The position numbers were made by a program, and so were the translations under genes. Shown here piece after piece: positions 423 to 48,900 of a DNA stretch of 64,000 nucleotides. Within the stretch, counting starts at the first letter, position 1. The number at the start of each line of letters is the position of its first letter. The DNA comes from a virus (taxonomy: Duplodnaviria > Caudoviricetes), in the IMG/VR virus record IMGVR_UViG_3300032232_001415, positions 64,001 to 128,000 of that record; one strand, written 5' to 3'. The notes under the pieces are model-generated. The model was not told the DNA's origin and made no database searches. It saw nothing but the letters and a program-made list of their open reading frames with translations.

Positions 423-447
423 CACTCGACTTATGGTGTGTTATCAT
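419..447 (+). promoter_or_regulatory. sigma70-type promoter for ssb
   Basis: TTGACA (419-424), 17-nt spacer, TATCAT (442-447), with extended -10 TG at 439-440. AGGAG RBS at 473-477, ATG at 486. Confidence 0.8.
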
Positions 448-485
448 AAGTTTGTAATTTGGTCCATAACTAAGGAGTTTATTCA

Positions 486-857
486 ATGAATATTAATATA
501 TTAAGAGGAAATTTAGCAAGAGATCCAGAAGTTAGAACTGTTAATACAGGTGGCAAGCAAACTACCGTAGTTAATTTTACAGTTGCTGTTTCTAGAGAAT
601 ACACAAAAGCCAATGGAGAGAAGGACAAGGTAACAACGTTTGTTCCTTGTGAAGCATGGGATACTGGAGCCGAGATTATCGCAGAATCATTTAAAAAGGG
701 CGATCTTGTTTTAGTAGAAGGATCTTTAAGAAATGATTCTTGGGAAAAGGATGGAGTAAAGCACAATACTCTCAAGGTTAGAGTAAATAACTTTTCAAAG
801 ATTACTAAACTCTCAAAGAAGAACAAAGTAGATCAAACCGAGCCAGTAGCGTTCTGA
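486..857 (+). CDS. ssb: single-stranded DNA-binding protein
   Basis: MNINILRGNLARDPEVR...FTVAVSR...FVPCEAW...KKGDLVLVEGSLRNDSWEKDG is a canonical SSB OB fold. Short tail ending in Phe; good RBS. Confidence 0.95.
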   Translation: MNINILRGNLARDPEVRTVNTGGKQTTVVNFTVAVSREYTKANGEKDKVTTFVPCEAWDTGAEIIAESFKKGDLVLVEGSLRNDSWEKDGVKHNTLKVRVNNFSKITKLSKKNKVDQTEPVAF

Positions 858-32800: not shown

Positions 32801-35800
32801 AATTCTTCTTTATCTAAAGCTTCCATTCGTCGCTTCATATGAGGAGCATCTTTATCAACGTGTCCATTATCAATCATTCTTTGATACTCTGCTCTTCTAG
32901 CTTTATAAATTTCTCTTATTAAATCTAGTGGTCTATCATGAAATTTATCTTGTGAATCTCTGGTAGCAGCATATTCTCTACGTCCTGATGTCATTATGTC
33001 AGACAGTTGTCTACTAGCCAAACTAGTCTTTAAATCTGGAGTTAATTCATCAACAGACAATGTCCTTGATTTTTCGGCAACTTCTGGCGGGAATAAAAAT
33101 TCATGCTGTTTCATTCTGCTATGCTGGGCTAGTGGATCTTTTTTCATTGAAGCATGAGACAGTCTGTATCTTTCTGCTTCTTTTATGGGCATTTCTAACA
33201 TTCTTAGTTGTAAACTCAGCTTGTCTAAATCTGTTAAATCATCTGAATCTTGGGTTTGTGATCTTGATTGAGCATAAAATCTTAATGCTTTTGGAGCTTC
33301 ACTCTCATCCATTGGGAAGAACCATCTTCTTCTGTTCGCTAAAATACCTCCTGGTTGTTCTGATAATGTTTGACTGTACTCTGATGAGCCTTTTTTGTCG
33401 CTTGGATTAGACGCTTCAACTCTCAAGAATCTAACAACTTCATCCAGTTTTGTATGTTGACCAGCGTATGGATACATTTTTTCATATCCTGGCTTAACAC
33501 GCATATTAAGAGATCTAATTTGATCAGCAGTAGAGTATTGTATTGATGGCTCGTCTATATTAGACTGTCTTCTATTTCTTCCTATGGGGGATCCTTTTTG
33601 TCTAAGATTTGATCCAACGGAGGCTAATTGAAGCATATCTTCAGCAACTTGTAATCTTCCATGAAAAGATCCTAATTGTTGACTTTCGTGGAATGGACTA
33701 AGAACCCTGTTTGGTCCTTTACCCTGAGCATGTATCGATGGTATTCCTTGTTTATCTACTACTGTCTTTGTCATAGCATCATACCAACCATTATATTTTC
33801 CACTATTTTTTCCACTATCTAACCATGTTGTATAGTTGGGTGCGAAAGGTCTCTGGTCTTGTTTATTTATAGATGGCGATTCGGTTCCTTCTGTAATCTT
33901 AACATTTTCACTATGATAATATGGTTTTCCGCCTTTTTGTAAATAATTAACCATTCCGCCTTTCTTGAATCCATAAGCTTTCATAACTTTTTTTAACATT
34001 TCTTGAGCCAAAGCATTTTGTCCAAATTTTGGATGATCCATTTTTTCAATCAGGCTAGTAAATAATTCATTTGGCTTAGCCCAAATATCATCAGAACTAT
34101 AATCTTTTTGACCAGAATAAAGATCTGGCCAACCTTTTGGATCATATAGAAAATCTTTAATATCATTTTTTATGACGCCTAACTTTCCTGCTTTGTATTG
34201 TGTTAAAGAATCTGTGCTGCGAAAAGTATGAGCACCACTAGAATGTTGTATAGCATGACCCATCTCATGTTGAACCATAGCTTCTGTGCTATTTCTATCT
34301 TTAAAAGCAAGGTGTGTTCCCCTGGGATCTAAAGTATTTGTTGTAGCTTCACCCATCGCTGTAGGATGACCAATAGCACCTGGACCCCAAGATGTTGATC
34401 TAATTCCAAAGTCTTGTTTTCTAAGAGCTAGTAATCTAGCTACTCCTTTCGGACCACTAGTATATGGCATTAATCTTGAGACGAGATCATTAGCAGATGC
34501 ATGCATTTGATCAGAATTACTAACATCAATTAATTTTCTATTGCCATAAGTTTCGGTATTTTGAGGATCCTGATCATATTTTTGTTCAGAAGGTTGCATA
34601 TCGCCAGGAAGTTGCATACCGCCAGGAAGTTGCATACCGCCAGGAAGTTGACTATTACGACTACCGCCACCAACAGGTCGGTAGTTACCATTGGCTCCTG
34701 GAAGAGTAAACCCTCCATCTTGTAGATAAGCAACTAATCCTCCCAAACTCTTATTTTGCGGTTTCATACCAGCAGCAGCTCTGTCTTTATCATTTGCAAA
34801 ACGACCAAAAGATTTCTTATCAAGAAGCAATGGTCTACCATCTGGTCTAATAATTCTAATATCACCATCAGATGTTACACTATCAAAACGACCCATAATA
34901 GATTCTTCTTCCTTACCATCATTATTTAAGTCCCATTTTTTATCACCATACCAAACTCTTTCGCCAAAAGCCAAGTTCGGCATTTCTCCTCTTCCAACAG
35001 AGCCAGATAAATATGGATACTTTTCTGCTTGTTTTTGTTTCATATCTCTTCCAGCTTTGCCAGATAAATATGGATATTTATCATCAAAATTAGGAGCACT
35101 AACCGGTGGCTTCGGAGCAGGAGTTGGTGACGGTTTTGATGGAGCACTAACCGGTGGCTTCGGAGCAGGAGTTGGCGACGGTTTTGATGGAGCACTAACC
35201 GGTGGCTTCGGAGCAGGAGTTGGCGACGGTTTTGTGTTAGTGCCAGTTGTAGGCGTGGGCGACCCCCCAATACTGCCCCATTTTACAGTATCTCTGATCG
35301 TTAAATCATCCGGCCCTCTGCCAGTTTTGGATAAATCCACCGGCTGAGATCTTCTATCTTTATCTTGTTGTTCTTTGATAGGTTGCTCTTTTAAGAATTT
35401 ATTTCTGGCTTCTATTTGCTGTTTGAGCAACATTAATCTTTGCTTCAAACTTAAGTTTTCTGGATCCGGATAGCGACCAGACAATATTTCATCTAGGGTG
35501 GGACGTCTTCCTTTTAAGAAATCTCCATCTTTATCTCTTGGCATATTATCAGCAGAAGATTCTCCAAAAAATCTTCTTTTTGCATTAATTCTATCTGTCT
35601 GTGCTTTTCTATCTTTTGTATTCCATGGATTATATTCTCCTGGACGCAATGGTCTGTCTTTACCGACACCCTGAACTTCATCAAGAAGTGACGTTACATT
35701 TTTACGAGCATAGGACTCATCATCTTGATGCATCATAGGTAGCCTATCCCATGCTTGGGAATTCATTCTGTCTTTCATTATCTTAGCATATACTGTATCA

Positions 35801-38800
35801 ACACCAATATTATTACCTTTTTTATCTGTTTTAAATAAATCTTGTCCTAAAATAGAGCGGAATGTTTTTTCATACCATGTACTAACCACCGGTGCTGGGC
35901 CGTATGGTTTGGGACGAGGACCACCATACTTGTCCTCCAGATATCCTTGAGTAACAGTAGGCACCTTCAAACCCCATTGAGCATAAACTACTCCACCATT
36001 ATTCAAATGTTTAACATCTCCTCCCTTACTACTATTAATAGCTTTTAATAAAGGAAGATGTTGAGAGGTAGATCGCGCATTAACAACAAATTCTCCGGGT
36101 GTAAGCATCGCGGGAACAGTATCCGTTCCCTTAGGTTCAAAATTAATTAATTTACCCGAACTAGCGTATACTACTCCGCCACTGCTAAAACCACTACTAG
36201 CAGCAACTTTATCTAATGTCTTTTTAGTATCAGATGTTGTTCCATTTATATTTTTTAATAATGGATTAGCATAGTTTTGGTTTTTAATATTATTATCATA
36301 AATTTTACTACTAGTATCTTTACTAGATATACTGTTTATTCTAGTATCAGAAACTAGTTTCTTAACATCTTTTATTTCTTTCAAGGCATTTTGATTATTA
36401 ATATTTTGAGAAAAATCTGATCTAATTTTAGATGATGCTAATCCTCCATCGGCCAAATAATTTACTGATCCACCTTTGTTTTTATTAATAGACTGCAATA
36501 GTGGAAGATTTTCTTTGGTTGCTCGTGCATTAACTACAAATTCTCCAGGAGTAAGCATAGCAGGAACAGTATCCGTGCCTTTTGGTTCAAAATTAATTAA
36601 TCTACCAGAACTAGCATATATCACACCTCCATTACTAAAGTTACCAGCAACCATTCCAGTAACAGTATTTGGAAATAAGAATTGAGCAGTTTGTTGGCTT
36701 ACTCCAAGATTATTTAATCGGGCCGCTGAAGTATTTGCATCTTCTCCTCTTTTAATAAATCCTTTGTCAATCATTCTATTAATTAAATTCATTCTAAGAT
36801 TAGCTTGTTGTGCTCTGGTAAGTGAACTTCCTCTGGCTGCGGCTTTTTCAAAACTAGACATAGTAGCAAGAGACTTTACGGCCAATGCTTGTTGTTGTCT
36901 TTCTAATAATGGTCTTCTTTGAATAGCAATTGCTTTGTCTCTGGGATTAGCAAGCTGTGTTATTTCATCATTACTAAGTTTAAGTATCTTTTTATCTGTT
37001 GCGCTTATTGTTCCTTGCTGAGACATAACATCTGCCCAAGCGCTAAGCTGTCTATCATTAAATGGCATGAATATAGCTTGAGCAGTATCTGCACTCATAT
37101 TGTAGTTTTTTACAAAATATTCAATATTATCCTTAGCCAAACCACCAATATTCCATTTATCCTGTAATCTTCTTAATACATTTTTTCTCCATCCTTCTGC
37201 TCTTCTCGGATCAGTTGGAGGATTCATCCCTGATATACCGGCCACTAATTTAAATCTTTGTAAACTTCTTCTTTCAGCTTGAGAAGCTTCTCTTCTGTCT
37301 CTCATTCTTCTGGCAGACTCTGCTCGCGCTTCATCTTTTTTATCTGCTTCTATTTTAGCTTTTTCATCACTCTTAGCCTTATCATATTCGTCCCATTTTT
37401 GTTTTCTTTCTTCAGGACTAAGATCTTTAAATTTAGCATTAGTATCTACAATCTGAGTATTTACTTCATTTATTTTTCTACCATAATATGTTTCTATCTC
37501 TTTGATTTTTTTTGCATGGTCTGCTCTTTTACGTTCTAATATGATAGCATTATTTTCTTTAGAATATCTACCCTCAGGTTTAATATCTGATCCATATAAT
37601 TCATAATCTGCCATAGTAAGAACGGAACCTTGATCATCCATCTTTCTTTGTAAGCTTGCTCTAGCTTCAGTCATTTGTTGTTGCAGATATGCTCTTTGTC
37701 TTGCAAGCTTATCTACTTCTTCTATTTTTTCTGGTATTATTGGTTTATTTATATATTGATCAGCTTGTTTTGCTACAGCGGATGGAATTCTAACATTATT
37801 ATATGTAGAAACTAAAGAACTTCCCAGATTTAACAAATTTTGTCCAGCATTCTGTATTCCTTCAATTCCTTGATTAATATTTTGTTCTAATCCTGGTCTT
37901 TCATAAGTATTAAACATAAATGTTTCATTTGCTTTGTGAGCTCTTTCTTCTTCTTTTCTTTTTTGCTCACTTTTAATCTCTTGTTCTTTCTGAAGGACAA
38001 TATAATCATTAGTTAGTCTTTCTAACTTAGCATCTTCATCAGTATATCCTGATCCACCTAAATATGGATTTTGATGCACCGGTAATGATCCATTCATGAA
38101 AAGAGAATTTCTTTCTCCATTCTGATTATATATTTCTTCCTTAAAGTTTTTATCAAGATATTTATCAACATAGCCGATTGGATTGTTACTACTTAATGCT
38201 TGATCTATTGTGGATTGAGATAATCCTTGTTCTTGAGCAAATCTTGTAAAGCGGATTTCAAAAGTTAAGGTGTCTGTATCATACTTGCCTATTTCATTTC
38301 TTGCTTTTTCAATATCTCTTTTTACTCTTGCTCGTCTACGTGCCCATCTAATCGCGGTTGTTGTGAATCCTTGTGTCATTTGAAATTCGCGACCACTAGC
38401 TGTACCAATTTCAGCAGATGGTAGTCCATAATTTCTTCTTTCAGTTTCCTGTCTAAGTCTTTCGGCTTCCGCGCTAGCGGAGGCAGCGCCACCAATAGCT
38501 ACTGATGTTCTTCCTACTGCTGCTGGTATTCCTCTTCCTGGTATCCATGTGCTAGGACGAGAAATGCTCATATCTGTACCAAAAACATTTCCAACAATAT
38601 TGGTTCCAATATTTCCTTCTTCCATTTGTTGTCTGGTTTCTTCGTTTTTTGCTCTAATATATGCTGGAGTATCATATACTGCTGATCCTATTTCATAAGC
38701 TGACTGCACACCAATTTCCGTAAGAATCATAGCAGGACCTTGAGGGGCACGTAATGGTGCTGGAGCATTAGGCCATATCACAGATGGCCTAGTTACTGGC

Positions 38801-41800
38801 ATATTAGCAGCTGGTATTGCTGCTCTAAGTCCTTGTCTTCCTCCGCTTCTATAGGCAGTATTTGCCGCTTGTGCTGTTAAACCAGATGCTCTTGATGGTA
38901 AACCAGCTGACTGAGCTGCTGTGACACCAATATCAGAAATTGCACCAATTTCTTCAACAACAATTCCTGCGTTTTCACCAGCCACAGCAGATACTGCTGC
39001 ACCTCCAGCTGTTCTCAAAACATTTCTAGCAACATTACCACTAACTCCTGATGAAGTAGCAGCGCTAAAAGCAGCAGAACCAGCCCTTGCTGCTCTTTGT
39101 CTCGCTGTTGGTTTGGGTTTTCCTGGTTTTGGCTGAGCATCCATATCTGCAAGAGCATCAGCAGCAGCATCAGCTGCTGTTACTGGCTTACTGCTTCCTT
39201 TTTTCAGATAAACTGGTCCACCACTATTTTTATTAATAGCATTTAATAATGGAAGATTATTTTTTGTGGCTCTTGAATTAACAACAAATTCTCCGGGACT
39301 CAACATTGCGGGAACAGTATCAGTTCCTCGTGGTATAAATTTACCAGAACTAGCATATACCATACCGCCGCTAGCTTTATTCATTACATTTCCTGGTCTT
39401 TGTATTCCTAATCCAATTTCTCTTAATTGTTGAGTATTAAAATTAATAGTTGTTTCGCTAATAGCTTTGCGAATAGCCTCTCCAGCAGTTTGAATTAATG
39501 TTATTTGCTGCTCATTTAATGTTCCAGCCAGAGCCTGAGTAGCATCACTCAATGCTGTTTGTTGAACATCTATTAAAGCATTAAGTTGCTTTACTATAGG
39601 ATCTTCACCAGTATCTTTTTCTAAAAGACTCAATGCTTTTGTAACAAATGGATCATTTTGTAATCCATTATTTCTAGCCATACCTCTAATCATATCTGCT
39701 CTTAATTGATTACTTTCCTTGCCCTCAAGACCCATCATCTGAAGCATTTCATTAAATGTAGCAAAAGCTTGTTTATTTTCATTAGAATATGCTTCTTGAG
39801 CAGCAGTCATAGCTTCCTGTTGTGTTCCACCATCTTTAATAATCTTACTATAAGCTTCATTAGCAGCTGCTGATTGTTGAATAGTTCTTATTTGACCATT
39901 TAATGTATTAGTGACTAATTCATATGAATTCCTCATATCCATAAGTTCTTGAGGAGTTCCAGTAACCATTTTTTCCGCAAATCCGACACTAGCTTGTCTT
40001 ACTGTTTCTATTTTTGCAACTCTTTTTTGTATTTCATTCATAGCATCTTCAATACTAGATTGTATGTTAGATGCTATATTTTTTAATCCATCTTTTGTTT
40101 TAGTTATCTGATTATTTAAGTCAGCAATTTGTCTTATAAAAGATTGTAGTTGAGCTTGAACTCTAGGATCAGCTAAGTTTGCACCAGAAGATTCAAAGGA
40201 TCTTTTTTGTTCGCTAACTCTATTTAATTCTTGAGAAGCTATTTTATATGCTGCCATTAAATCAGTTGTATTTAAAGATCCTGTTTTAACACCAGCTTTA
40301 ATTTCTGCTGCCTGAACTCTTGCTGATCCCCTTTCGCTTACTCCTACTTCTTTACCTAGTAATTCTTTTTGACGAATATCTATATTTTTTTGATTGACTA
40401 TATTCTCTGCATATAAATTATTAATTTCGCTTTGTAAAGCTATTGATTTTTCAATTGCGTTAGCATAAATATTTAATCCTTCTTCTACTGCTGTTATGAT
40501 CTTAGTAGTAGATTCCATTAATTGTTTATTAGCTTCTGTTAAATCATTTAGTCCAGTTAACTCATTAATAAACGCATCTAAGTCGAATTCTCCGCCCTCT
40601 TGTTTTTTAGCTCGTTGAGCATCAATAGCTGATGCTATTTGTTTACGCAGATTATCTGTTAATCTATTATCTCCAAAAGATTTAATAAGCTTATCAGTTA
40701 ATGCTCTTTGAATATTTTCAGCAGCTAATTCTGGATCAGTTCCTGCCTGTTGGGCCTGAGCGGCCATACTAGACGCTATGGTTCTAGCATCTCCACCAAA
40801 GGATGCTAATTGTTCAACAAATTTAGCATCAGAACCAAAGAAGCCACTAACTTGACGCATAGCCCCAGATTGTTGATTAGAACTATATGCATTAGGATTG
40901 CTAATTATATTTTTAGCATTGAACGATGTTTTTAAAGAAACCGTTCCATTAGCGATATCTTCTAATCTTGAACTAACATTTTGCAAAGAAACAGAAGTTT
41001 TTGCAACAGCAGAGTCCATATTTGCAAATGTACGACTAATAGAAACGGTTGACATATTAATAGCTTTTGCTAGCTTTGATGAAGCTTTAGCTCTTTCAGC
41101 ATCTGCTGCTGCTATTTGTAGTCCCGCCGTTTCTTGCTTAAAGTATGTTTCTATAAGTGCTTTTTGTTCATTTCTGATTTCTTCCTTTGTAGCATCATCA
41201 GTATATTTATCTGCTAATGCTCTTTCTAGTTTAGCATTTTTTGCCTGAAATTCAGCACTACCTTCTGCTATCTGTTTTTTAACCGCATCTTGATTTGGAC
41301 CTAAAGAACCCATGGCTGCTCCAAACCCTTTTCCGCTATATGCTGTAACTTGGTTACTCAATAATTTAATTGCAGCATCTGCACCCGCCCTATTTGTTGC
41401 TGCTCTTTCTTGACCAAGTTCAGTATCATTTTGTTTTGTAGTATTAAACATATATCCGGCAGTTATATAATTACCGAATTTTTGCAATACTCCTGGTTGT
41501 TTAAGTTGATCATTTTTAGTTTGAATTTTACCTTCTTCTTCTGATATTGTTTTTATTCCTTGTAATACAGAGTTAGTTGCTGCTGTATCTTTTGCATTTC
41601 TTGATAGTCTTTCAAAATTTTTGTCAATACCAGCACTAGTATTTTCTATTTTCTTTTCACTTAATTCTTTTTCTGCTTGAGCTACTCCTTTATTATATCC
41701 TTCAACAGCTAAAACTGTTCCTGCTATAGCTCCAACTAAAGCACCGTATGGACCAAATTGAGAACCTATGGAAACTGCTGTACCAAAAGCTGTTCCGCCA

Positions 41801-44800
41801 GCAGCAACTCCGGCGCCCTTTGCTCCTCCTATTGATGATCCAATATTTTCAGCAGCCATCGGAATAGCAAATGCTGCTGCTAGTCCTTTATTTTGCCAAC
41901 TTGAAGTACTGTTTCTTCTAGCTTCTATTTGATCTTCGGTTAAAACTTTACCAGTTAATGTTGTTTTGCCAGTTACAAATCCTTTAACATTCTTTAGCAT
42001 TCCTCCTGTTGTGCTAGCGGTTACCGAAGCGGCCTTGGATATTTGTTGGAAAAATCCAGCAGACTGCTTAGCGCTATTAGTCATGCTATTCACTATTTGA
42101 TCTAAACGCGCCTGAGACATAGTAGAAGAAGATCTATTAATAAAAGGCGGAGGAGCAGCAATCTGACTTCCCCTAACTCGTCCTTCTGCTGGACCAAACA
42201 ATGATTCATATTGATAAGTATATCCTATACCCCTATTTGGAGCAGAGGCTTCAAAAGCTTCTTGGCTGCCTCTAGTACCAACTTTTGTTGTATCTGCTCC
42301 TGGTCCTGTGATTCTACGATTACCTTTTACTCTGCCTCGTTCGTCAACCTCAAATCCTCCAACAACATCTCCTCTGGAGGCTGCTCTTCTTTCTAGTCTT
42401 GCTTGTTCTATATCTGCTCTGTTTACAGGTATGGCAGTAGAAGCTTTTTGTTCATCAGTTAATCTACTACCGCTAGAAGTTTTCAATTGTTGAGGAACCA
42501 TAGACGTTGGTCCCTTAGGAGGACCTTGTATACTATCTGTAACTTCTTTTCTAGCCTTATCCAAAGCTTCTCCAAGACTCATTCCTCCCTTAATTAATTG
42601 TGCCGCAAGTTTTTTAGCCTGTTGCTCAAGACCCATATCATCCAAACTTTTTGTAAGTCCTCCATCAACAAATTTTTGCACAGTACCGACACTTCCACCC
42701 TTATTAAATCCTAGTATTTTATCAGCACGATTTAATTTATTTAATCTTGGTAATCCTATACTTTGTGCCGCTCTTTTATTAATAACAAATTCACCAGGAG
42801 TTAAAAGAGCAGCAACAGTATCTTCTGAATGTCCTCCACTAGCAAATTTTCTAAACATTCCAGAATAACCCACTTTGCCGCCAGTATGAAATTTTGCCAC
42901 TTCTTTTGACTCTGGAATTCCATATTGTTGTCTAAAATATCTTTGAAATTCTTTTATGGCTTTTCCTCTGCTTCCACTATCAATGGTTCTTTTAACTTCT
43001 GTGGGGATATTAGGATCAATACCAAATATTTTTGCTGCTTTAGGCCCAATACCCATTGGGAAGTCAATTGGGCGAGTTCTTAAAGCATCATCTAATATTG
43101 TAGCATCTGCTGATCCAAAAATTTGCTCTAATAAAGCACCCTCAATATTACCTTGTCCTAATGTTTCTCGTTGTTTTTTTGTTAATTTCTTGGGAGATAT
43201 TCCCAGAAGTTTGGATGCTCCTCCTACAATTTCTTCTGTTTTTCCACTAAGATAATCAATTACATTTTGATATTGATTTGGTAAGCCTCTTTGAACTATT
43301 GAAGCATCTATTGATCTTTCTTGTCCAGATGAATCGACTCCAAGATTCCAAGTTTCTGGCCCTAATAGTCCAGTATAACCCAACGGATTTAATCCAACTA
43401 GCCCCAACTGCTGAGACGATAACACCGCACTAGTAGTATCTGATAATGCTTGTGCTGATTTGGTTCCTTGAGATTCATTAAATTTTTGTATTAAGTAATC
43501 TCTAGTAGCAAAATAATATGCTTGTTTTTCGGGATTAGTTGCTGGAGGTAAGCTGGTTTGCCAATATTTTAATTTACCTCCATCAGCAGTGTCTCTTACT
43601 GTTTTTCCTCCGAATGGACCAAAACTTGGATCACTTGGTAGTCTTTCAGATCCAAATCTTTTTAATATCTCTGTTCCTTGTGTTGGTAATATTCCAGAGG
43701 ATTTCTTGACCTGGGTGGCCTTTTCTACATTTTGTAGTATTGCCGCTTCTAGTCCAGAAGGCATCGCTGTTGAAACTCCTCCAAATTCACCACTCATCTG
43801 TTCTGATAATTGCGATGCTATAGCTTCCTTTGTTATATCTGATGGCTGTGCGGATACTGAGGATTTTCTTGACGGATCTATTCCATAAGTTTCTGGATAT
43901 TTAGCAGATAATGCTCTGATTATATTATGCGCCCTATATCCAAATGCTCCTTTAGACACTCTGTCTCTTTTATCTCTTATCTGTTTAACTTGATCAGCTA
44001 TTTCTGGATAATTCTTCTTTAAATCAGCACTAACATTACCATAAGGACCACCAGGAGCATTTGATAATATTTCTGTAACCTCAGTATTGGATCGTGCTTT
44101 ATCTTGATCAACAAATTTTTGTATTTCTTCAATTAGCATAGGAACCATAGTGCTACGATTACGTAATTGTGCTCTATTGCCCATTAATACTGATGCTATA
44201 TCAGGATGCAAGAGGCTAGTTAGTGTTTTATCATCGCCATGAAATAACGCATCTCTAACTTTGGTAGCGCTAATATCTTCTATTCTAGGAATGTCTTTAA
44301 CATCTATTCCTGCTCTTTGGTATTTACCTAATGTTTTATCATCTTTACCAGAAGTTATTGCCATAGCTCCTTTTAGTTTAGCGAATTTTCTTCTATCTCC
44401 ACTACCAGCAACTTCCATAAATTTTGATAAACCGCCAGCAGGCTGACCTTGAGTGCTAATCATAGCATTTCCAAAATTAATTTGGCTGAATAAAGCTCTT
44501 AAATCTTCTTGAAAAATACCATATCGTGCAGCATGATCTATTCCTTCTTTACCAACAACCATTGGAAGATCCGTGGCAACATTAACAACAATATCTTCTA
44601 AAGAAGCGTTTGGATTTTTAGCTAACATATTCTCTAATAAGGTATCTAATGCTCCTCTGTGTCCTCTGGTTGGAGGAGCAAAACCGCCCATATAAAATCC
44701 ACCAGCCTGAACCATTTCCGGTAATTCACTATCTTTTTTACGTCTTAAACCAAAACTATCTTTTTTTCTTCCAAGAACAGTGGCTTTTTTACCCAATTCG

Positions 44801-47800
44801 TCTCGTAGTATAGTTTCTTCCAAAGCAAAATCAGCGTCAGCTCCTCTTGTGGTTCCTGGTTTACGACCATATAAGCCTTCTCCTGTAGTATCTCTACTAT
44901 CTCTATTTAATCTAATCTGATCTTGCTCACCTCTATTATTAGAACTTAATACATATGCTCTATCAACATCTTTTAAATAAGCATCTAGCTTAGACTGACT
45001 AGCTGTGGAAGTTAATACAATGACTTCATTAACTTTTTCTATATCTTCGGGCGTTAATATTTGAGAGCGAACTGTTTTTCTTAAAGTCGCATCATCAGTT
45101 GCTCCTTTGCCAGTTGCCAAACTACTTTTTCCACTTCCAGCAGCTCCAGCAATAGCTCTAAACTTAGATAATGATCCAGTTTTTCTGGCTTTAGCAGCTA
45201 ACTCTCCAAGCTTTGTTGTATAATCACTAACATCTGTTATTCCAAGTTTTTCCATTGCTTTATCAACAATACTAGCATTTGCAGGATCTCTTAAAACATC
45301 AGTATCAACTATCCCGATATTTCTTAATACCTGTCCTCCAGCACCATAAGCTTGTCTTTTAATACCAGCATTACTGAATAATTCATTTAGCGTAGAATCT
45401 AAAATTCCCTGCATATTAGAGTCTAGTTTAGGAGCGTTCTGAATAAGAGTAGTTAAAAATTCTTCTTTACCATAATCTTCTACTTTTCCTATCGTATCTT
45501 GTCTCTGTCCACCTTTTAACAGTATCTCATTAATTTTTGGATTGATTGGTCGATACTCTCTAGCATTTTTCTTTTGTCCAGACTCTACCCACATAGAGTA
45601 TGCTTCTTTAGATAGTTCAGGATTTGCGCCTCTTCCCCCGAAGTTCATAGTTTCTTGTCTCAAATTTTGTAAAACAGTATCAAGTAAACCATTCTTATAA
45701 GAGCGTCCATAAACAACATCAGCACTATTATAACTTCCACCCAATGCATCAAATGCGTCTGCAAGACCATCATTGTCTCCATTAAATAATTGAGACACTC
45801 TTTCTTTATATTTTGTAAAACTATCTTCTGATTGGGTTCGTAAAGAATTCAATAATTGATGTGTTAATTCATGATATAAAACATTTTTTGGTTGATTACG
45901 ATCAAAAGCATTACTAGCCATCGAAACAAATCCTCGACCTGTTGATTCTAAAATGCCCTTCTTTTGCTCCATAAGACCTTTACGAGCAACTGCTTTTTTG
46001 CTCATTATATCTGATACTTTCTTACCCAATGCCATTTTTTCATCCATAGATTTATTAAAAGCCACAGTATCATAACTGAATGATCCATCTTCATATGTTG
46101 TTACTGGTGTTTTTAAGATTTTTTTGGTTTCTTTTGTTTTTTCATCTAGTAGTTTTTGGTATCCAAATAAATCTTGTTCATCAGCTTGTGTGAATCCAAA
46201 AGGTTCTAATCCTTTATCGTCATATCCCTGAGCCCCAAAAGGATCTCTACTAAATTTTCCACGATATCCATAAGTTTGTAATTTACCACCAAAATCTATA
46301 GTTTGTGGTAAAACTTTACTTAAGTCTTCTTCTGGTAATCCTATAAATTTAGCAAAATCTGATAGATTACCCAATAATTCATTACGGCTAATTTTGGTAT
46401 TAAATAAACTTAAAAATCTTTTACGATCAAAAGGTTCGCTCTGGAATTTTTGTTGTACTTCTGCAGGATCGACCGTTATTCTTTCATTGGTAGGATAAGG
46501 ATCGAAAGCATTATTTACTCTTTCTAGATCTAGTTTTTTCTGCAATTCTTTAGCATAAGCATTAGTAATACGCTTAGGAAATTTTGTCTCTCCTGTTCCA
46601 AAGGGTATAGCTTCTGCTTTTCCTCCAGCCATAAATTTTTGAATCATTCCTCCAATATTTTTCTTTTGTATTTTTGAAGATCCAGCTGGAGAAAAGTCTT
46701 TAATTGTCTCTTCAACAGTTTTTCCAGGAAATCTTTTTTTATATTCTTCTTTTGTCATTGAGCTAGCAGCGCCACTACCATATGGTACTGCTAATCCAGA
46801 ACTCATTAATTTATTAGCTAATTCATTATCTTCTAATAAAATTCTACCATATTTTTCATTTTTTTTATTTCCTGATGGTCTCAATAATTTTAATATATCT
46901 TGATTAGATTTTGTTTTATAATGATCTGTAGCAACTTCTTTAGCTTTTAAGCCCAATGTTTTTTGCCAACTATTTTTTCTTCCTCCTTTATTTGTTACTT
47001 CAAAAGCATCAACTCCTAAGAGTCTTGTTCCTGTATCAAAAGGATCATCTGTTGGAGTTACATTGATATTCAATGTATCTCCATCAGTAACTCTATTTAA
47101 GTTATTGACAGAAACTATTCCTCCAATAGCATATTTTTTTCTTTTTCTTGATGCTCCAGACTTAATAGTGCCTCCAATTCCATATTTATTCATTCTATGT
47201 AAATTACTAGCCCCTATAGTCTGCACAGCCCTTTTGCGTATAACAAATTCTCCAGGCTCTAACATTGCTGGAACAGTATCTCCATCACCGCTACCAGGAA
47301 CAACTCCTCCTCTGGCAAATTTATGTATCATTCCACCACTATTTTTTTTTGTTGTTCTTAAACCTCCTGCAAAACCGGTTGCAAATTGACCTAAAGCACT
47401 TACTCCTCTAATAGCAGTAATAGCAGTTAGTGCTGGAATAACACCCTTAGCAGCATCTGCTATTCTTATAAGTCCACTAGTTAAATCAAGAGACATTTTA
47501 ATAAAGTTTTGGAATCCACTATCATTTCCAATTGATCTAATTAAAGCTGTAAACTCTTCTCTTACTTTTGTAAGCTGAACAGCAAATGCTTGTTGTGCTG
47601 TGGTAGCATCTCTTGCCAATGAACCTTGTCCTCTTTGAGCAACTACCAATGCTTGTTGTGCTGTTGCAAATTCTTGAATAAGTGGTATAACTTTACCAAT
47701 TTGTCGGAATCCACCAAGTTCTTCAACTATTCTACTAAATCTTAGATCTCTAGGATCTAATTGACTAAGACCAGCACTTAGTCTTTTAACAGCTTCATAT

Positions 47801-48900
47801 GGCCCAACGAATTTTCCTTGTAAATCTGTTAAGTTAACTCCAAATTCTTTTAAGGCCTCTATAGTTCCGCCTCTTTGAACACGAGTAAAAATTGTTCTTA
47901 AACCAGTAGCAATAGTTTCTGCGCTTTCACGAGTTGTTGCTCTTACACTAGTAAATACTGCTAAAAATTCATTCAATGCGTCTTTACCTTCGCTAACTCC
48001 TCTGCTAGATGCGGCAAAAACACCACCGGTACGCTGAATAGCAGTAATTAAGTCGCTAGATTCAACGGCGAATTTAGCAGCAACAGCATTGACAGATCCT
48101 AGTGCTGATCCGAGATCTTTAGCACTAATACCGAACTGTCTCATAAGGGCGATACTTCCTTCTACTGTCTCACTTAAATTATCGAAAGATGGAGCAAGAG
48201 CACTTTGGGCCAAAGCTTCTAGGGCCTTTTCTGTATCTCTTGCGCTCAAACCAGCCTGAGCTAGTGTGCTGGAAACACTGATTAATTCTCTAGATGAAAC
48301 ACCAAGGCTTGTGGATAGTCCAGTAATTTGATTAACAAGCTTGCTAAGATCTGATATGGAGGTATCTGTTACCTGAGAAACTCTAACTAACTCTCTATTA
48401 AAATCAATAAAATCTTTAGATGCTGATGATATTGCATTTCCAATTTTATATACAGCCCCGGTAACAGTTGCAAATGCGGCAAATCTACGAATAGCAAGAG
48501 CGCCTTGTCTTCCAAATTCTTCAAATTCTGTTCTAGCCTGTTGTACAGCTTTTGCTGATTTATTAGCATTACTAGTCAATTGATTATTAGCACTAGCAGC
48601 ACTTTGAATAGCTCTTGGTAAAGAACTAATATTAGATACTGTTTGTTGTGCAGTTCTTGATAACGTGGCTAAACTAGTATTAGCTTGTCTAGATAATGTG
48701 GAAGTATTTCTTAGACTATCATTAAGTCTATTAAATGCTTGAGAAAGATTAGAGACATTTCTTGCCACACTAGGATCTATTTTTACACTAACATTAGCAT
48801 CAATTGTTCCTAGCTGTCTACGAATATCTGCAACTACTGTGCGAATATTTGATGGACCACGAAGATTAATTTCTGCTGTTAAATTAAATCCTTTAGCCAT
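29878..48900 (-). CDS. giant polyvalent tail tape measure protein (6340 aa) with embedded enzyme modules
   Basis: N-terminal TMP core ('ELVRVSQVT...LAQAGL...VAAKFAVESSDL...TRESAETIATGLRTIFTRV'). Follows the tail tube and chaperone genes. Six GG...DTVPAML(T/S/E)PGEFV motifs. AGGA RBS. Confidence 0.9.
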   Translation of the reverse strand: MAKGFNLTAEINLRGPSNIRTVVADIRRQLGTIDANVSVKIDPSVARNVSNLSQAFNRLNDSLRNTSTLSRQANTSLATLSRTAQQTVSNISSLPRAIQSAASANNQLTSNANKSAKAVQQARTEFEEFGRQGALAIRRFAAFATVTGAVYKIGNAISSASKDFIDFNRELVRVSQVTDTSISDLSKLVNQITGLSTSLGVSSRELISVSSTLAQAGLSARDTEKALEALAQSALAPSFDNLSETVEGSIALMRQFGISAKDLGSALGSVNAVAAKFAVESSDLITAIQRTGGVFAASSRGVSEGKDALNEFLAVFTSVRATTRESAETIATGLRTIFTRVQRGGTIEALKEFGVNLTDLQGKFVGPYEAVKRLSAGLSQLDPRDLRFSRIVEELGGFRQIGKVIPLIQEFATAQQALVVAQRGQGSLARDATTAQQAFAVQLTKVREEFTALIRSIGNDSGFQNFIKMSLDLTSGLIRIADAAKGVIPALTAITAIRGVSALGQFATGFAGGLRTTKKNSGGMIHKFARGGVVPGSGDGDTVPAMLEPGEFVIRKRAVQTIGASNLHRMNKYGIGGTIKSGASRKRKKYAIGGIVSVNNLNRVTDGDTLNINVTPTDDPFDTGTRLLGVDAFEVTNKGGRKNSWQKTLGLKAKEVATDHYKTKSNQDILKLLRPSGNKKNEKYGRILLEDNELANKLMSSGLAVPYGSGAASSMTKEEYKKRFPGKTVEETIKDFSPAGSSKIQKKNIGGMIQKFMAGGKAEAIPFGTGETKFPKRITNAYAKELQKKLDLERVNNAFDPYPTNERITVDPAEVQQKFQSEPFDRKRFLSLFNTKISRNELLGNLSDFAKFIGLPEEDLSKVLPQTIDFGGKLQTYGYRGKFSRDPFGAQGYDDKGLEPFGFTQADEQDLFGYQKLLDEKTKETKKILKTPVTTYEDGSFSYDTVAFNKSMDEKMALGKKVSDIMSKKAVARKGLMEQKKGILESTGRGFVSMASNAFDRNQPKNVLYHELTHQLLNSLRTQSEDSFTKYKERVSQLFNGDNDGLADAFDALGGSYNSADVVYGRSYKNGLLDTVLQNLRQETMNFGGRGANPELSKEAYSMWVESGQKKNAREYRPINPKINEILLKGGQRQDTIGKVEDYGKEEFLTTLIQNAPKLDSNMQGILDSTLNELFSNAGIKRQAYGAGGQVLRNIGIVDTDVLRDPANASIVDKAMEKLGITDVSDYTTKLGELAAKARKTGSLSKFRAIAGAAGSGKSSLATGKGATDDATLRKTVRSQILTPEDIEKVNEVIVLTSTASQSKLDAYLKDVDRAYVLSSNNRGEQDQIRLNRDSRDTTGEGLYGRKPGTTRGADADFALEETILRDELGKKATVLGRKKDSFGLRRKKDSELPEMVQAGGFYMGGFAPPTRGHRGALDTLLENMLAKNPNASLEDIVVNVATDLPMVVGKEGIDHAARYGIFQEDLRALFSQINFGNAMISTQGQPAGGLSKFMEVAGSGDRRKFAKLKGAMAITSGKDDKTLGKYQRAGIDVKDIPRIEDISATKVRDALFHGDDKTLTSLLHPDIASVLMGNRAQLRNRSTMVPMLIEEIQKFVDQDKARSNTEVTEILSNAPGGPYGNVSADLKKNYPEIADQVKQIRDKRDRVSKGAFGYRAHNIIRALSAKYPETYGIDPSRKSSVSAQPSDITKEAIASQLSEQMSGEFGGVSTAMPSGLEAAILQNVEKATQVKKSSGILPTQGTEILKRFGSERLPSDPSFGPFGGKTVRDTADGGKLKYWQTSLPPATNPEKQAYYFATRDYLIQKFNESQGTKSAQALSDTTSAVLSSQQLGLVGLNPLGYTGLLGPETWNLGVDSSGQERSIDASIVQRGLPNQYQNVIDYLSGKTEEIVGGASKLLGISPKKLTKKQRETLGQGNIEGALLEQIFGSADATILDDALRTRPIDFPMGIGPKAAKIFGIDPNIPTEVKRTIDSGSRGKAIKEFQRYFRQQYGIPESKEVAKFHTGGKVGYSGMFRKFASGGHSEDTVAALLTPGEFVINKRAAQSIGLPRLNKLNRADKILGFNKGGSVGTVQKFVDGGLTKSLDDMGLEQQAKKLAAQLIKGGMSLGEALDKARKEVTDSIQGPPKGPTSMVPQQLKTSSGSRLTDEQKASTAIPVNRADIEQARLERRAASRGDVVGGFEVDERGRVKGNRRITGPGADTTKVGTRGSQEAFEASAPNRGIGYTYQYESLFGPAEGRVRGSQIAAPPPFINRSSSTMSQARLDQIVNSMTNSAKQSAGFFQQISKAASVTASTTGGMLKNVKGFVTGKTTLTGKVLTEDQIEARRNSTSSWQNKGLAAAFAIPMAAENIGSSIGGAKGAGVAAGGTAFGTAVSIGSQFGPYGALVGAIAGTVLAVEGYNKGVAQAEKELSEKKIENTSAGIDKNFERLSRNAKDTAATNSVLQGIKTISEEEGKIQTKNDQLKQPGVLQKFGNYITAGYMFNTTKQNDTELGQERAATNRAGADAAIKLLSNQVTAYSGKGFGAAMGSLGPNQDAVKKQIAEGSAEFQAKNAKLERALADKYTDDATKEEIRNEQKALIETYFKQETAGLQIAAADAERAKASSKLAKAINMSTVSISRTFANMDSAVAKTSVSLQNVSSRLEDIANGTVSLKTSFNAKNIISNPNAYSSNQQSGAMRQVSGFFGSDAKFVEQLASFGGDARTIASSMAAQAQQAGTDPELAAENIQRALTDKLIKSFGDNRLTDNLRKQIASAIDAQRAKKQEGGEFDLDAFINELTGLNDLTEANKQLMESTTKIITAVEEGLNIYANAIEKSIALQSEINNLYAENIVNQKNIDIRQKELLGKEVGVSERGSARVQAAEIKAGVKTGSLNTTDLMAAYKIASQELNRVSEQKRSFESSGANLADPRVQAQLQSFIRQIADLNNQITKTKDGLKNIASNIQSSIEDAMNEIQKRVAKIETVRQASVGFAEKMVTGTPQELMDMRNSYELVTNTLNGQIRTIQQSAAANEAYSKIIKDGGTQQEAMTAAQEAYSNENKQAFATFNEMLQMMGLEGKESNQLRADMIRGMARNNGLQNDPFVTKALSLLEKDTGEDPIVKQLNALIDVQQTALSDATQALAGTLNEQQITLIQTAGEAIRKAISETTINFNTQQLREIGLGIQRPGNVMNKASGGMVYASSGKFIPRGTDTVPAMLSPGEFVVNSRATKNNLPLLNAINKNSGGPVYLKKGSSKPVTAADAAADALADMDAQPKPGKPKPTARQRAARAGSAAFSAATSSGVSGNVARNVLRTAGGAAVSAVAGENAGIVVEEIGAISDIGVTAAQSAGLPSRASGLTAQAANTAYRSGGRQGLRAAIPAANMPVTRPSVIWPNAPAPLRAPQGPAMILTEIGVQSAYEIGSAVYDTPAYIRAKNEETRQQMEEGNIGTNIVGNVFGTDMSISRPSTWIPGRGIPAAVGRTSVAIGGAASASAEAERLRQETERRNYGLPSAEIGTASGREFQMTQGFTTTAIRWARRRARVKRDIEKARNEIGKYDTDTLTFEIRFTRFAQEQGLSQSTIDQALSSNNPIGYVDKYLDKNFKEEIYNQNGERNSLFMNGSLPVHQNPYLGGSGYTDEDAKLERLTNDYIVLQKEQEIKSEQKRKEEERAHKANETFMFNTYERPGLEQNINQGIEGIQNAGQNLLNLGSSLVSTYNNVRIPSAVAKQADQYINKPIIPEKIEEVDKLARQRAYLQQQMTEARASLQRKMDDQGSVLTMADYELYGSDIKPEGRYSKENNAIILERKRADHAKKIKEIETYYGRKINEVNTQIVDTNAKFKDLSPEERKQKWDEYDKAKSDEKAKIEADKKDEARAESARRMRDRREASQAERRSLQRFKLVAGISGMNPPTDPRRAEGWRKNVLRRLQDKWNIGGLAKDNIEYFVKNYNMSADTAQAIFMPFNDRQLSAWADVMSQQGTISATDKKILKLSNDEITQLANPRDKAIAIQRRPLLERQQQALAVKSLATMSSFEKAAARGSSLTRAQQANLRMNLINRMIDKGFIKRGEDANTSAARLNNLGVSQQTAQFLFPNTVTGMVAGNFSNGGVIYASSGRLINFEPKGTDTVPAMLTPGEFVVNARATKENLPLLQSINKNKGGSVNYLADGGLASSKIRSDFSQNINNQNALKEIKDVKKLVSDTRINSISSKDTSSKIYDNNIKNQNYANPLLKNINGTTSDTKKTLDKVAASSGFSSGGVVYASSGKLINFEPKGTDTVPAMLTPGEFVVNARSTSQHLPLLKAINSSKGGDVKHLNNGGVVYAQWGLKVPTVTQGYLEDKYGGPRPKPYGPAPVVSTWYEKTFRSILGQDLFKTDKKGNNIGVDTVYAKIMKDRMNSQAWDRLPMMHQDDESYARKNVTSLLDEVQGVGKDRPLRPGEYNPWNTKDRKAQTDRINAKRRFFGESSADNMPRDKDGDFLKGRRPTLDEILSGRYPDPENLSLKQRLMLLKQQIEARNKFLKEQPIKEQQDKDRRSQPVDLSKTGRGPDDLTIRDTVKWGSIGGSPTPTTGTNTKPSPTPAPKPPVSAPSKPSPTPAPKPPVSAPSKPSPTPAPKPPVSAPNFDDKYPYLSGKAGRDMKQKQAEKYPYLSGSVGRGEMPNLAFGERVWYGDKKWDLNNDGKEEESIMGRFDSVTSDGDIRIIRPDGRPLLLDKKSFGRFANDKDRAAAGMKPQNKSLGGLVAYLQDGGFTLPGANGNYRPVGGGSRNSQLPGGMQLPGGMQLPGDMQPSEQKYDQDPQNTETYGNRKLIDVSNSDQMHASANDLVSRLMPYTSGPKGVARLLALRKQDFGIRSTSWGPGAIGHPTAMGEATTNTLDPRGTHLAFKDRNSTEAMVQHEMGHAIQHSSGAHTFRSTDSLTQYKAGKLGVIKNDIKDFLYDPKGWPDLYSGQKDYSSDDIWAKPNELFTSLIEKMDHPKFGQNALAQEMLKKVMKAYGFKKGGMVNYLQKGGKPYYHSENVKITEGTESPSINKQDQRPFAPNYTTWLDSGKNSGKYNGWYDAMTKTVVDKQGIPSIHAQGKGPNRVLSPFHESQQLGSFHGRLQVAEDMLQLASVGSNLRQKGSPIGRNRRQSNIDEPSIQYSTADQIRSLNMRVKPGYEKMYPYAGQHTKLDEVVRFLRVEASNPSDKKGSSEYSQTLSEQPGGILANRRRWFFPMDESEAPKALRFYAQSRSQTQDSDDLTDLDKLSLQLRMLEMPIKEAERYRLSHASMKKDPLAQHSRMKQHEFLFPPEVAEKSRTLSVDELTPDLKTSLASRQLSDIMTSGRREYAATRDSQDKFHDRPLDLIREIYKARRAEYQRMIDNGHVDKDAPHMKRRMEALDKEEFDLTRRVQKTLEKPITLPEDYMSLYKGGIVYAQEGSYIPFKSPRAKALNDRRIQGEKVQEEKQKAAMLDRLRKQLNAELAPTGNRAMSELQQRLRASGYLEGKKQRKDAAIDKEEYEQIKFALDMIEEYKRFQYSQIPVNNKFDSEAEKTRRRNTPQLPPPLPHLTPQSKQYGGMVNYLQNGGLSSDDMALREKIDRDIRERAKWEAERPKREGIEKRRMEKELRKKEIAERREAISELKVNILGPKPNGGGEGLFGKDRGSGYDGRWKGEYAKLPNNIEALKRIRDEKLYTPEGMSKTQASFDNVFRSAQTQTQRRKEEFKGYDKTDFIMGFMIDSDTNLTRLKDGYLTKDELSVIFKFWDINKDGLLQANELDPQNRKLPDILNKSLRPKQNILDPEIGSLDPEAGVKRLNPKTESLPHETMGPRDPAVNTPPPRPNRQESTFAGAGQYAKINVTDFDTMIAAREEFIQKLLPYTSSPEGAKKLISKSKSGENKHKNRIGFGGSLNYGVDLKEFPESEWGRGRFMGRAGAEKRGLPETDNGMMFNKEQIQKGVVQHEMAHALQDISTRGGMGYTQDMYEGKISDGYGKKTDISADVNNYLTNKAGWSLVQKLHRGRTGHDTLYQTQMPGMEVFTNMVQFMDLIKGSSQQDIDRAMYNDADTVNINDFNNLYDNTLKLIMKSMGYKRGGIVYASAGTLVPYQPKGTDTVPAMLTPGEFVVNRESTQKHLPLLKSINAGAYATGGEVYKEEAERKRKAYQDEMERRRRSYREDKDMRSLVSARKYEDSGRSLPSGLQSRLSSIQDRDPLTYNTMRNYNANLGYMAPSLTNSQNTTKNDSPEFGQILTTLTQSSRDFNNAITVATKALQDYQRQIVSGGATTGNSVSNNGAPNNIGLDGLSQFTDKFNNFVSELQKINLPPIINVEGTHKVEVVINGASALQNILQGPIGDLVRDSVKNAFDKLRASTEGGISIN
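30638..30750 (-). repeat. TMP linker motif copy 6 (GYKRGGIVYASAG...KGTDTVPAMLTPGEFVVN)
   Basis: Read directly in the translation and DNA. Confidence 0.9.
32261..32283 (-). repeat. 23-nt exact repeat in GG linker (GGMVNYLQNGG), copy B
   Basis: ttttgtaaataattaaccattcc, identical to 33935-33957. Confidence 0.9.
33935..33957 (-). repeat. 23-nt exact repeat in GG linker (GGMVNYLQKGG), copy A
   Basis: Identical to 32261-32283. Confidence 0.9.
34593..34650 (-). repeat. 18-nt tandem repeat x3.2 encoding QLPG(G/D)M
   Basis: gttgcata(c/t)cgccaggaa units. Confidence 0.9.
35093..35234 (-). repeat. 48-nt tandem repeat x3 encoding the Pro-rich linker KPSPTPAPKPPVSAP(S)
   Basis: ggagcactaaccggtggcttcggagcaggagttgg(t/c)gacggttttgat units, nearly identical. 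Confidence 0.95.
36080..36190 (-). repeat. TMP linker motif copy 5 (FSSGGVVYASSGKLINFEPKGTDTVPAMLTPGEFVVN)
   Basis: Near-identical protein sequence to copy 4. Confidence 0.9.
36530..36640 (-). repeat. TMP linker motif copy 4 (FSNGGVIYASSGRLINFEPKGTDTVPAMLTPGEFVVN)
   Basis: Read directly. Confidence 0.9.
39278..39375 (-). repeat. TMP linker motif copy 3 (ASGGMVYASSGKFIPRGTDTVPAMLSPGEFVVN)
   Basis: Read directly. Confidence 0.9.
42781..42847 (-). repeat. TMP linker motif copy 2 (FASGGHSEDTVAALLTPGEFVI)
   Basis: Read directly. Confidence 0.85.
47242..47320 (-). repeat. TMP linker motif copy 1 (FARGGVVPGSGDGDTVPAMLEPGEFVI)
   Basis: Read directly; marks the end of the N-terminal TMP core. Confidence 0.9.

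Follow-up and report, generated by a model that had tools for sequence, protein, structure and literature searches.

A kinase–nucleotidyltransferase cassette embedded in a giant tape measure protein of uncultured tailed phages

The tape measure gene and its cassette

The DNA considered here is a stretch of 64,000 nucleotides (the window) from a virus of the Caudoviricetes, positions 64,001 to 128,000 of the IMG/VR record IMGVR_UViG_3300032232_001415. It encodes a giant tape measure protein (TMP), P0001, within which a P-loop kinase domain is followed by a nucleotidyltransferase domain and a helical extension, together forming a module of about 500 amino acids (aa). TMPs are usually regarded as rulers and channel formers. 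The cassette in P0001 is a real and conserved bifunctional enzyme pair, judged from structural models and conserved motifs to be probably active, built from known folds and housed in an enzyme-bearing TMP.

The first ~560 residues of P0001 are a genuine tape measure domain. Residues 150-500 match TIGR01760 with 89.9 bits (cut-off 28.8) and PF10145 with 87.9 bits (cut-off 33.2), and the N-terminus also matches many TMP entries of PHROGs. Annotated TMPs of cultured siphophages match P0001 at 20-26% identity (tblastn). The open reading frames (ORFs) that flank it on the minus strand match tail-fibre and baseplate-wedge PHROGs, and the tail gene order around it is kept on phage contigs of 100-240 kb. 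Both by its domain and by its tail-gene setting, P0001 is a TP901-type phage tail tape measure protein. The features within it are listed in Table 1.

Table 1. Position of P0001 and of the features within it (window coordinates; residue numbers with a letter refer to the module, or to P0001 where so marked)
Feature	Coordinates	Strand	Residues	Basis or remark
P0001, tape measure ORF	29878..48900	minus	6,340 aa	single uninterrupted ORF containing the kinase–transferase cassette
Staphylococcal-nuclease-like domain	46740-47110	minus	P0001 aa ~598-720	
HELTH (HExxH) block upstream of the module	45361-46500	minus	P0001 aa ~801-1180	
Kinase–transferase module with helical extension	~45339 to ~43879	minus	~500 aa	
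P-loop kinase domain, zeta-toxin/ng_zeta1-like	44719..45339	minus	module 9-215; P0001 aa 1188-1394	AlphaFold2, VIA
Invariant D-x-D on N-terminal beta-strand, candidate catalytic base	45298..45306	minus	D20/D22 = P0001 D1199/D1201	alignment, VIA register
Walker A, GAAGSGKSS	45121..45147	minus	K79 = P0001 K1258	translation; GxxxxGK[ST] intact in 70/73, K in 73/73
Conserved Arg-bearing lid segment	44863..44895	minus	R157 to G166-R167	alignment; helix end and loop in model
HIGH-superfamily nucleotidyltransferase domain	44164..44718	minus	module 216-400; P0001 aa 1395-1579	AlphaFold2, Foldseek, VIA, profile
First signature, GGFAPPTRGH, (T/H)xGH motif	44659..44688	minus	H235 = P0001 H1414	translation, alignment
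Second signature, RIEDISATKVR, R-x4-ISxT-x2-R	44254..44286	minus	R360, S365, T367, R370	translation, alignment
Conserved helical C-terminal extension	43879..44163	minus	module 401-495; (near-)invariant R403, R463	AlphaFold2, alignment
Region after the module, ~300 aa	42865-43803	minus	P0001 aa ~1700-2012	

Conservation of the module

HMMER, run exhaustively against 1.84 billion representatives with P0001 aa 1180-1700 as the query, matched 88 cluster representatives, 73 of them below 1e-30. Nearly all of the 88 are giant TMP-like proteins of 3,000-7,300 aa, in which the whole query aligns as a single block, typically between residues 600 and 2,100; the short matches are fragments. The order of the domains, kinase before transferase, is constant, and the two are always fused and always inside a TMP.

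Residue conservation was counted in an alignment of the 73 homologues, which are 28-88% identical. In the first signature, G234 and H235 occur in all of them, G226 and P230 in 72 each and T232 in 69; in the second, R360, S365 and R370 are present in 73/73 and T367 in 72/73, and the S-x-T-x-x-R motif is intact throughout. The invariant or nearly invariant residues of the module also include D20, D22, D107, D134, R157, R167, R280, R289, Y348, R360 and R403. The ratio of non-synonymous to synonymous substitution rates (dN/dS), calculated against five close IMG/VR relatives, is 0.11-0.19 in both enzyme domains (about 0.14) and 0.08-0.23 in the helical extension. As a unit of ~500 aa recurs in 88 representatives with near-invariant residues and a low dN/dS, its motifs are beyond chance: the module is a conserved, selected protein unit and not a chance pair of motifs.

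The motifs that an earlier note, made from the DNA alone, had quoted for this locus are found by translation on the minus strand and inside the TMP, at the positions it gave or a few bases away ('IRLNRDSR' corresponds to module residues 150-157). The functional unit is larger than the extent that it proposed, 44160-45330, owing to the helical extension (Table 1). The HxGH motif of that note needs correction too, as GH is invariant and the first position is Thr (TxGH) instead of His.

The same counts make it scarcely credible that the two domains are structural relics devoid of catalysis, serving the tape measure only as spacers or plugs. A few homologues have indeed lost the Walker A or the first HIGH position, and the cassette is dispensable in 77 of 120 related TMPs. 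Against this stand K79, G234-H235, R360, S365 and R370, each kept in 73/73 sequences across 28-88% identity, and the dN/dS of about 0.14.

Some copies of the module may be inactive. A degenerate Walker A, GAAANRKSS, occurs in L007 (8197-9843), P0014 and P0020, and L016 (501-2015) has a degenerate GSTKST together with GPVHAGY.

The module is compact, and its in silico fold is confident. The AlphaFold2 model, built from a 15-sequence alignment, has a predicted local distance difference test score (pLDDT) of 85 and a predicted template modelling score (pTM) of 0.77; for the kinase part alone, these values are 86.8 and 0.85. Models, motifs and profiles bear out both domains of the earlier note, a P-loop kinase followed by a nucleotidyltransferase of the HIGH superfamily.

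The nucleotidyltransferase domain

The transferase model has the Rossmann-like HIGH-type fold that the earlier note had predicted. Its closest structural match in VIA is the archaeal nicotinamide mononucleotide adenylyltransferase (NMNAT) 1f9a, with Z 12.3 over 154 aligned residues and a root-mean-square deviation (rmsd) of 2.9. It is followed by the phosphopantetheine adenylyltransferase (PPAT) 4nah (Z 12.1), NadM 2qjo (Z 11.9), NadD (Z ~10), TmcAL (Z 9.7-10.4), NadR (Z 9.5-9.8), and TagD, CCT and HldC (Z ~8-9). Foldseek, which the note had suggested as a check, also matched the model to NadM and PPAT, at E 3e-5 to 1e-3 and with probability 1.00. NMNAT 1f9a, NadM 2qjo, NadD and PPAT/CoaD 4nah share with the module the Rossmann-like HIGH fold, the (T/H)xGH motif and ISxT-xx-R; the module differs from them by its low identity (11-17%) and by its extra conserved helical extension. 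Since the NMNAT, PPAT and NadM matches are tied, the acceptor substrate is not readable from the fold.

At the sequence level, a profile of the alignment matched MJ0951 (3gmi) at E 3e-6, over the ISGT motif plus the helix after it. The phage enzyme 9x6f, an NMNAT fused to a ribosylnicotinamide kinase (RNK), was matched at E 0.009 and at its first motif only, where GGFAPPTRGH aligns to GxFxPxTRGH. For NadD and PPAT, too, the match lay in the first motif; for TagD (0.014), it lay mainly in the second. The second signature aligns with 'RLEGISGTKIR' of MJ0951 and 'RTEGISTTKI' of TagD. PF01467 matched 5 of 15 homologues at E >=0.004, all sub- or near-threshold, and did not match the window's own sequence at E<=0.1. 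Because its curated threshold is not reached, membership of the HIGH superfamily is founded on fold and motifs and holds at the superfamily level only; at that level, the assignment of the transferase to the HIGH-signature, cytidylyltransferase-like nucleotidyltransferases is secure. In the protein atlas, its neighbours are small phage clusters of the CTP_transf_like and citrate-lyase-ligase-like types (0.92).

PF16581 matched 13/15 homologues (best 4e-7), over profile positions ~64-109 only, and the window sequence at E 0.025 with 15 bits, below the cut-off of 26.7. It is a model of the TmcAL-family C-terminal region, as matches to the controls from T. maritima and M. jannaschii showed. A supposed link to a cyanophage 'cytidyltransferase' was therefore dropped, S-PM2 being without PF16581.

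These matches raise the question of whether the transferase is a TmcAL- or CitC-like ligase that would adenylate a carboxylate, for instance acetate, by means of its HIGH domain and pass it on to RNA or protein, with the extension binding the macromolecule. MJ0951 (3gmi), of the TmcAL family, is the best sequence-level match in the PDB; a helical region follows the catalytic domain both in the TmcAL/UPF0348 proteins (HIGH_NTase1; 3gmi, 5y0r, 5y0n) and in the module, and the structural alignments span 193-208 residues, including the C-terminal helices. The TmcAL-family Pfam match in 13/15 members and the citrate-lyase-ligase-like atlas neighbours agree with such a role. However, the sequence match is limited to the common ISxT motif and the next helix, the N-terminal half, including the HIGH_NTase1 Pfam model, is unmatched by sequence, and the structural fit (Z 9.7-10.4, rmsd 4.0-6.7) is below that of NMNAT and PPAT. 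A ligase of this kind would also leave the fused kinase without a role, and the reading is judged highly improbable.

The kinase domain

The best structural match of the kinase is the gonococcal zeta toxin ng_zeta1 (6epg), with 153-157 residues aligned and an rmsd of 3.8-3.9. The VIA Z-score was 7.7 in the wide search and 8.5 when Foldseek's list was re-aligned, the latter being about 1.7 above the next class. Adenylate kinases reached Z 6.3-6.8; AvrRxo1, reportedly an NAD 3'-kinase that acts on NAD and nicotinic acid adenine dinucleotide (NAAD), Z 6.2; dephospho-CoA kinase and PNK, Z about 5.6-5.8; and human NRK1, Z 4.6. Foldseek found no match to the kinase model at E<=0.001, and it was VIA-align alone that separated ng_zeta1 from the other kinases. 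The Pfam family Zeta_toxin (PF06414) was not matched at E<=0.1 by the window or the 15 homologues, so the resemblance to zeta toxins is at the fold level only.

The order of the structural elements is shared with ng_zeta1 in particular. In that toxin, two blocks of sequence have changed places in comparison with other zeta toxins, and the catalytic Asp56 precedes the P-loop Lys115 by 59 residues (PMC5923241). The ng_zeta1 alignment starts at residue 6 of the kinase model and thus covers its N-terminal strand, whereas the alignments to classical zeta toxin and AvrRxo1 start at residue 18-19 and omit it. D20 and D22, each conserved in 72/73 homologues, lie on this strand (12-19/20), 57-59 residues ahead of K79, the counterpart of Lys115, and the VIA register 6..208 = 48..232 sets D22 (P0001 D1201) on Asp56, a correspondence of register only. 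The lack of a clear Walker B, already remarked upon in the earlier note, is normal for this class of kinase; it is explained by the acidic D20/D22 strand, which lies before the P-loop as in ng_zeta1. Further along, R157 is kept in 71/73 and R167 in 73/73 homologues, and the lid segment that bears them may be analogous to the phosphate-binding patch of ng_zeta1, Arg175/Arg181 (PMC5923241).

The module thus resembles ng_zeta1 (6EPG/6EPH/6EPI; PMC5923241), and with it the wider kinase class of zeta, PezT and AvrRxo1, in its P-loop nucleotide-kinase fold, in the helices before the P-loop, in the acidic strand at the Asp56-Lys115 spacing and in the Arg-rich lid that follows. It differs in that its identity is 12-16%, it has no Zeta_toxin Pfam match, and neither an epsilon antitoxin nor the OB-fold C-terminal domain is present, although a separate antitoxin gene is not to be expected for an embedded domain. 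Moreover, the module kinase has a nucleotidyltransferase as its fusion partner and is part of a virion protein. Known substrates of ng_zeta1 are UDP-N-acetylmuramic acid (UDP-MurNAc), UDP-N-acetylglucosamine (UDP-GlcNAc) and UDP-glucose (UDP-Glc) (PMC5923241). The model and the conserved residues suggest that the kinase is active and belongs to a class with nucleotide-linked compounds as its known substrates.

The likeness to ng_zeta1 would fit a zeta-toxin-like attack, in which the kinase turns UDP-MurNAc, UDP-GlcNAc or NAD into dead-end products and stalls cell-wall synthesis or metabolism, while the transferase supplies, regenerates or further modifies the nucleotide-linked substrate. The best kinase match is bound to UNAM and has the rewired topology in common with the module, AvrRxo1 with its NAD 3'-kinase activity is also matched, and toxin-like ADP-ribosyltransferase and nuclease cassettes occur on the same TMPs. 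Pools of UNAM-type precursors are presumably small, and a few enzyme molecules could matter there. Such an attack nevertheless appears unlikely. Apart from the unmatched Zeta_toxin Pfam, the gain for a lytic phage from early poisoning of the cell wall is not evident, and the strictly conserved fusion to a transferase is left unexplained.

The helical extension and the flanking blocks

The extension is modelled as two long helices, 397-434 and 453-488, with pLDDT 85-93. R403 is found in 73/73 and R463 in 67/73 homologues, and the structural alignments with TmcAL reach into it (219..494). Between the start of the module (GAGG, aa ~1187) and aa ~2035 there is no full GG/DTVPAMLTPGEF linker, so the linker-bounded unit consists of the kinase, the transferase, the helical extension and then a region of ~300 aa. 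This last region gave no sequence match in the PDB.

The region after the module contains a conserved part, 'KYW...AYYxATRDYL...GLVGLxP', and closes with a mini-domain of ~95 aa, whose E...IDFP...EVK spacing gives it the look of a PD-(D/E)xK nuclease.

Two neighbouring blocks accompany the module. The block at aa 1701-1900 is found in 65-67% of module-positive and 1-3% of module-negative TMPs, and that at aa 801-1200, with its HExxH motif, in 42-51% and 1-3%, respectively. As the upstream block co-occurs with the module, the cassette may travel as part of a larger unit. HExxH modules are also present in P0001 itself.

The staphylococcal-nuclease-like domain of P0001 (Table 1) is matched by the endonuclease phrog_452 (E 3.6e-8) and by the calcium-activated nuclease model NF047969 (0.004).

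Distribution and evolution of the cassette

A search with the N-terminus of the TMP returned cluster representatives of 3,487-11,095 aa, at least 547 in number. A further comparison covered the best 120 of them, which are 53-73% identical to P0001 over the N-terminal domain and come from contigs of up to 238 kb; one is labelled as a Sphingobacteriia metagenome-assembled genome. Nearly all share certain scaffold segments (aa 1-600, ~2000-2100, 2600-3200, 4100-4300 and ~6000-6100); everything outside these is variable cargo. The module is present in 43 of the 120 (36%) and absent in 77, and is therefore an accessory cassette on a conserved scaffold, that is, optional equipment gained and lost among related phages.

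Another kind of cargo are ADP-ribosyltransferase (ART) cassettes (PF03496), which many related TMPs carry, such as P0196 (aa 1381-1720) and 38 others; P0001 has no match to the ART of P0196. In at least 8 relatives, an ART cassette lies directly upstream of the module N-terminus. The presence of an ART is independent of that of the module (10/43 vs 17/77, odds ratio 1.07, p=1.0), and a proposed link between ART and NAD+ supply was accordingly rejected.

Outside these giant proteins, the module has been hard to find. Neither blastn nor tblastn matched it to any of 50,697 GenBank phage records, phmmer with the single module sequence found nothing in the PDB, and NCBIfam was without a match. Three single-protein scans of IMG/VR added only 2 further loci. 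No clean free-standing homologue was encountered; a word-indexed profile search of proteins of 174-961 aa returned a TMP fragment only. P0089 (279 aa, on a 1.7-kb contig) was considered as a stand-alone gene and rejected, being a divergent copy with in-frame TAA, TGA and TAA stops. In this copy (L018:1-1740), the first stop falls on the codon of the Walker A lysine, and the frame runs on into the helical extension and the 'EVK' domain.

The L018 copy may be decayed, or it may reflect an oddity of assembly or of the genetic code. No published description of a kinase–transferase cassette in a tape measure protein was found in the literature.

Comparison with NadR and the question of NAD+

The earlier note had seen in the two domains a pairing like that of NadR. 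The likeness is real in part: NadR and the phage enzyme Bas30_86 of the NARP3 pathway (9X6F/9X6H; PMC13464706) also unite a P-loop kinase and a HIGH-type adenylyltransferase in one polypeptide, and the GxFAPxTRGH of Bas30_86 is nearly identical to the module motif. The order of the domains, on the other hand, is reversed. In NadR and Bas30_86, the NMNAT comes first and the RNK second (residues 1-166 and 167-351 of Bas30_86; PMC13464706), whereas in the window the kinase lies at module residues 9-215 and the transferase after it, at 216-400. The kinase, too, appears to be of the zeta rather than the RNK type (ng_zeta1 Z 8.5 vs adenylate kinases 6.8 and NRK1 4.6); no NadR chain stood among the kinase-domain matches listed, an absence that concerns the list and does not in itself exclude a relationship. 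Bas30_86 is, furthermore, a free cytoplasmic enzyme and not part of a virion protein, and the module has no PnuC partner. The NadR reading is therefore partly supported, with the NadR-like pairing as such not upheld.

With the pairing comes a functional proposal, namely that the cassette rebuilds NAD+ in the sequence nicotinamide riboside (NR) to nicotinamide mononucleotide (NMN) to NAD+ and so counters depletion by Thoeris, DSR or Sir2-HerA, as NadR or NARP3 enzymes might. Phages do rebuild NAD+ by means of a kinase and an NMNAT enzyme, and Bas30_86 is a precedent for phage-encoded counter-defence (PMC13464706). The top transferase match is an NMNAT, with NadM, NadD and NadR at Z 9.5-11.9, and the profile aligns GxFAPxTRGH to Bas30_86. 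This profile does not cover the NMN-binding loop of Bas30_86, however, and PPAT is tied with NMNAT. The opposite domain order and the zeta-like kinase also speak against it, as does the independence of the NAD+-using ART cassettes from the module, which argues against a dedicated NAD+-supply link. Finally, a handful of TMP copies would hardly refill a millimolar NAD+ pool. Altogether, the rebuilding of NAD+ is regarded as improbable.

Putative role of the cassette during infection

HIGH transferases join a nucleoside monophosphate (NMP) to a phosphorylated acceptor, creating an NMP-phospho-X linkage. Known kinases of the zeta class transfer phosphate to a sugar hydroxyl of metabolites linked to a nucleotide, such as UDP-sugars and NAD. 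On ejection, the TMP comes out of the tail before the DNA does, and siphophage tails have few TMP copies per virion. On this basis, the reading moderately favoured here is that of a catalytically competent two-enzyme cassette, whose kinase and transferase carry out consecutive steps on a nucleotide-linked molecule and which is delivered at infection. Both domains may act on one small molecule: the transferase would make a nucleoside diphosphate (NDP)-linked or dinucleotide compound, which the kinase would then phosphorylate. Logical analogues are PPAT followed by dephospho-CoA kinase, or NMNAT followed by a kinase of the AvrRxo1 type. The reverse order of steps, with the kinase acting first as in NadR, is also conceivable.

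The cassette is probably delivered into the host with the DNA, an argument by analogy based on the early exit of TMPs and on the RNA polymerase borne by the TMP of the Thermus phage P23-45. This polymerase is part of gp96, a giant TMP of 5,002 aa, and acts in the newly infected cell (PMC10770324). The polymerase of gp96 is N-terminal, whereas the present phages have an internal, swappable pair of metabolic enzymes. If the cassette behaves like gp96, the TMP would exit the tail before the DNA, and the enzyme pair would act near the entry pore of the newly infected cell as a pre-made effector that alters a host metabolite or signal. Since TMP copies are few in each virion, low-abundance signals or precursors are more plausible targets than a refilling of bulk NAD+.

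A different role would place the work of the cassette in the producing cell, where it would activate a sugar or alcohol, as in HldE-, choline- or glycerol-type pathways, for the decoration of virion or DNA; in one variant, the HExxH modules would free it from the polyprotein during assembly. A kinase and a HIGH-type transferase do form classic activation pathways, and the structural matches include HldC, TagD and CCT (Z about 8-9). Expression of the TMP is late and high, HExxH modules lie in the same ORF, and the aa 801-1200 block co-occurs with the module. Nonetheless, there is no sign of processing, free sugars are not substrates of known zeta-class kinases, and there is little reason to house a metabolic enzyme in a TMP if delivery plays no part. 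As the P23-45 precedent favours delivery as well, action in the producing cell is considered quite unlikely.

Several points weigh against a delivered and active enzyme pair. The kinase Z-scores of 7.7-8.5 are modest, with 12-16% identity and no sequence match to the Pfam Zeta_toxin, and the Asp56 equivalence comes from an alignment register and not from a residue-level superposition. For the transferase, NMNAT, PPAT and NadM are within 1 Z of each other, and no substrate is singled out. In a few homologues, the motifs are degenerate (GAAANRKSS in L007; GSTKST and GPVHAGY in L016). Delivery of the cassette part of the TMP to the cytoplasm, where ATP would be available, is argued from analogy. 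A folded module of 55 kDa should not fit the lumen of the tail tube, and would therefore have to be stored unfolded or elsewhere. The giant protein, with its HExxH modules, could also be processed before assembly.

A more specific version of the delivered cassette can be offered tentatively, and at a lower probability than the general one. Within seconds of DNA entry, a virion-delivered effector, still tethered to the tape measure, would make a low-abundance nucleotide-based molecule at the pore, or would inactivate one by phosphorylation; a second messenger of immunity, a phosphorylated dinucleotide antimetabolite and a precursor of the cell wall are candidates. Such an effector would pre-empt host defence without any phage gene expression.

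Significance

Uncultured phages of a large clade, represented by contigs of 70-240 kb, carry swappable enzymes on a tape measure scaffold, and about a third of the closest relatives bear the strictly conserved kinase–nucleotidyltransferase pair. The ng_zeta1-type rewired kinase topology is rare and would, with this module, extend beyond toxin–antitoxin systems. If the cassette is delivered and active, these phages would inject a small-molecule-modifying effector together with their genome, and this would matter for phage counter-defence, including the contests over NAD+, nucleotide signals and precursors of the cell wall.

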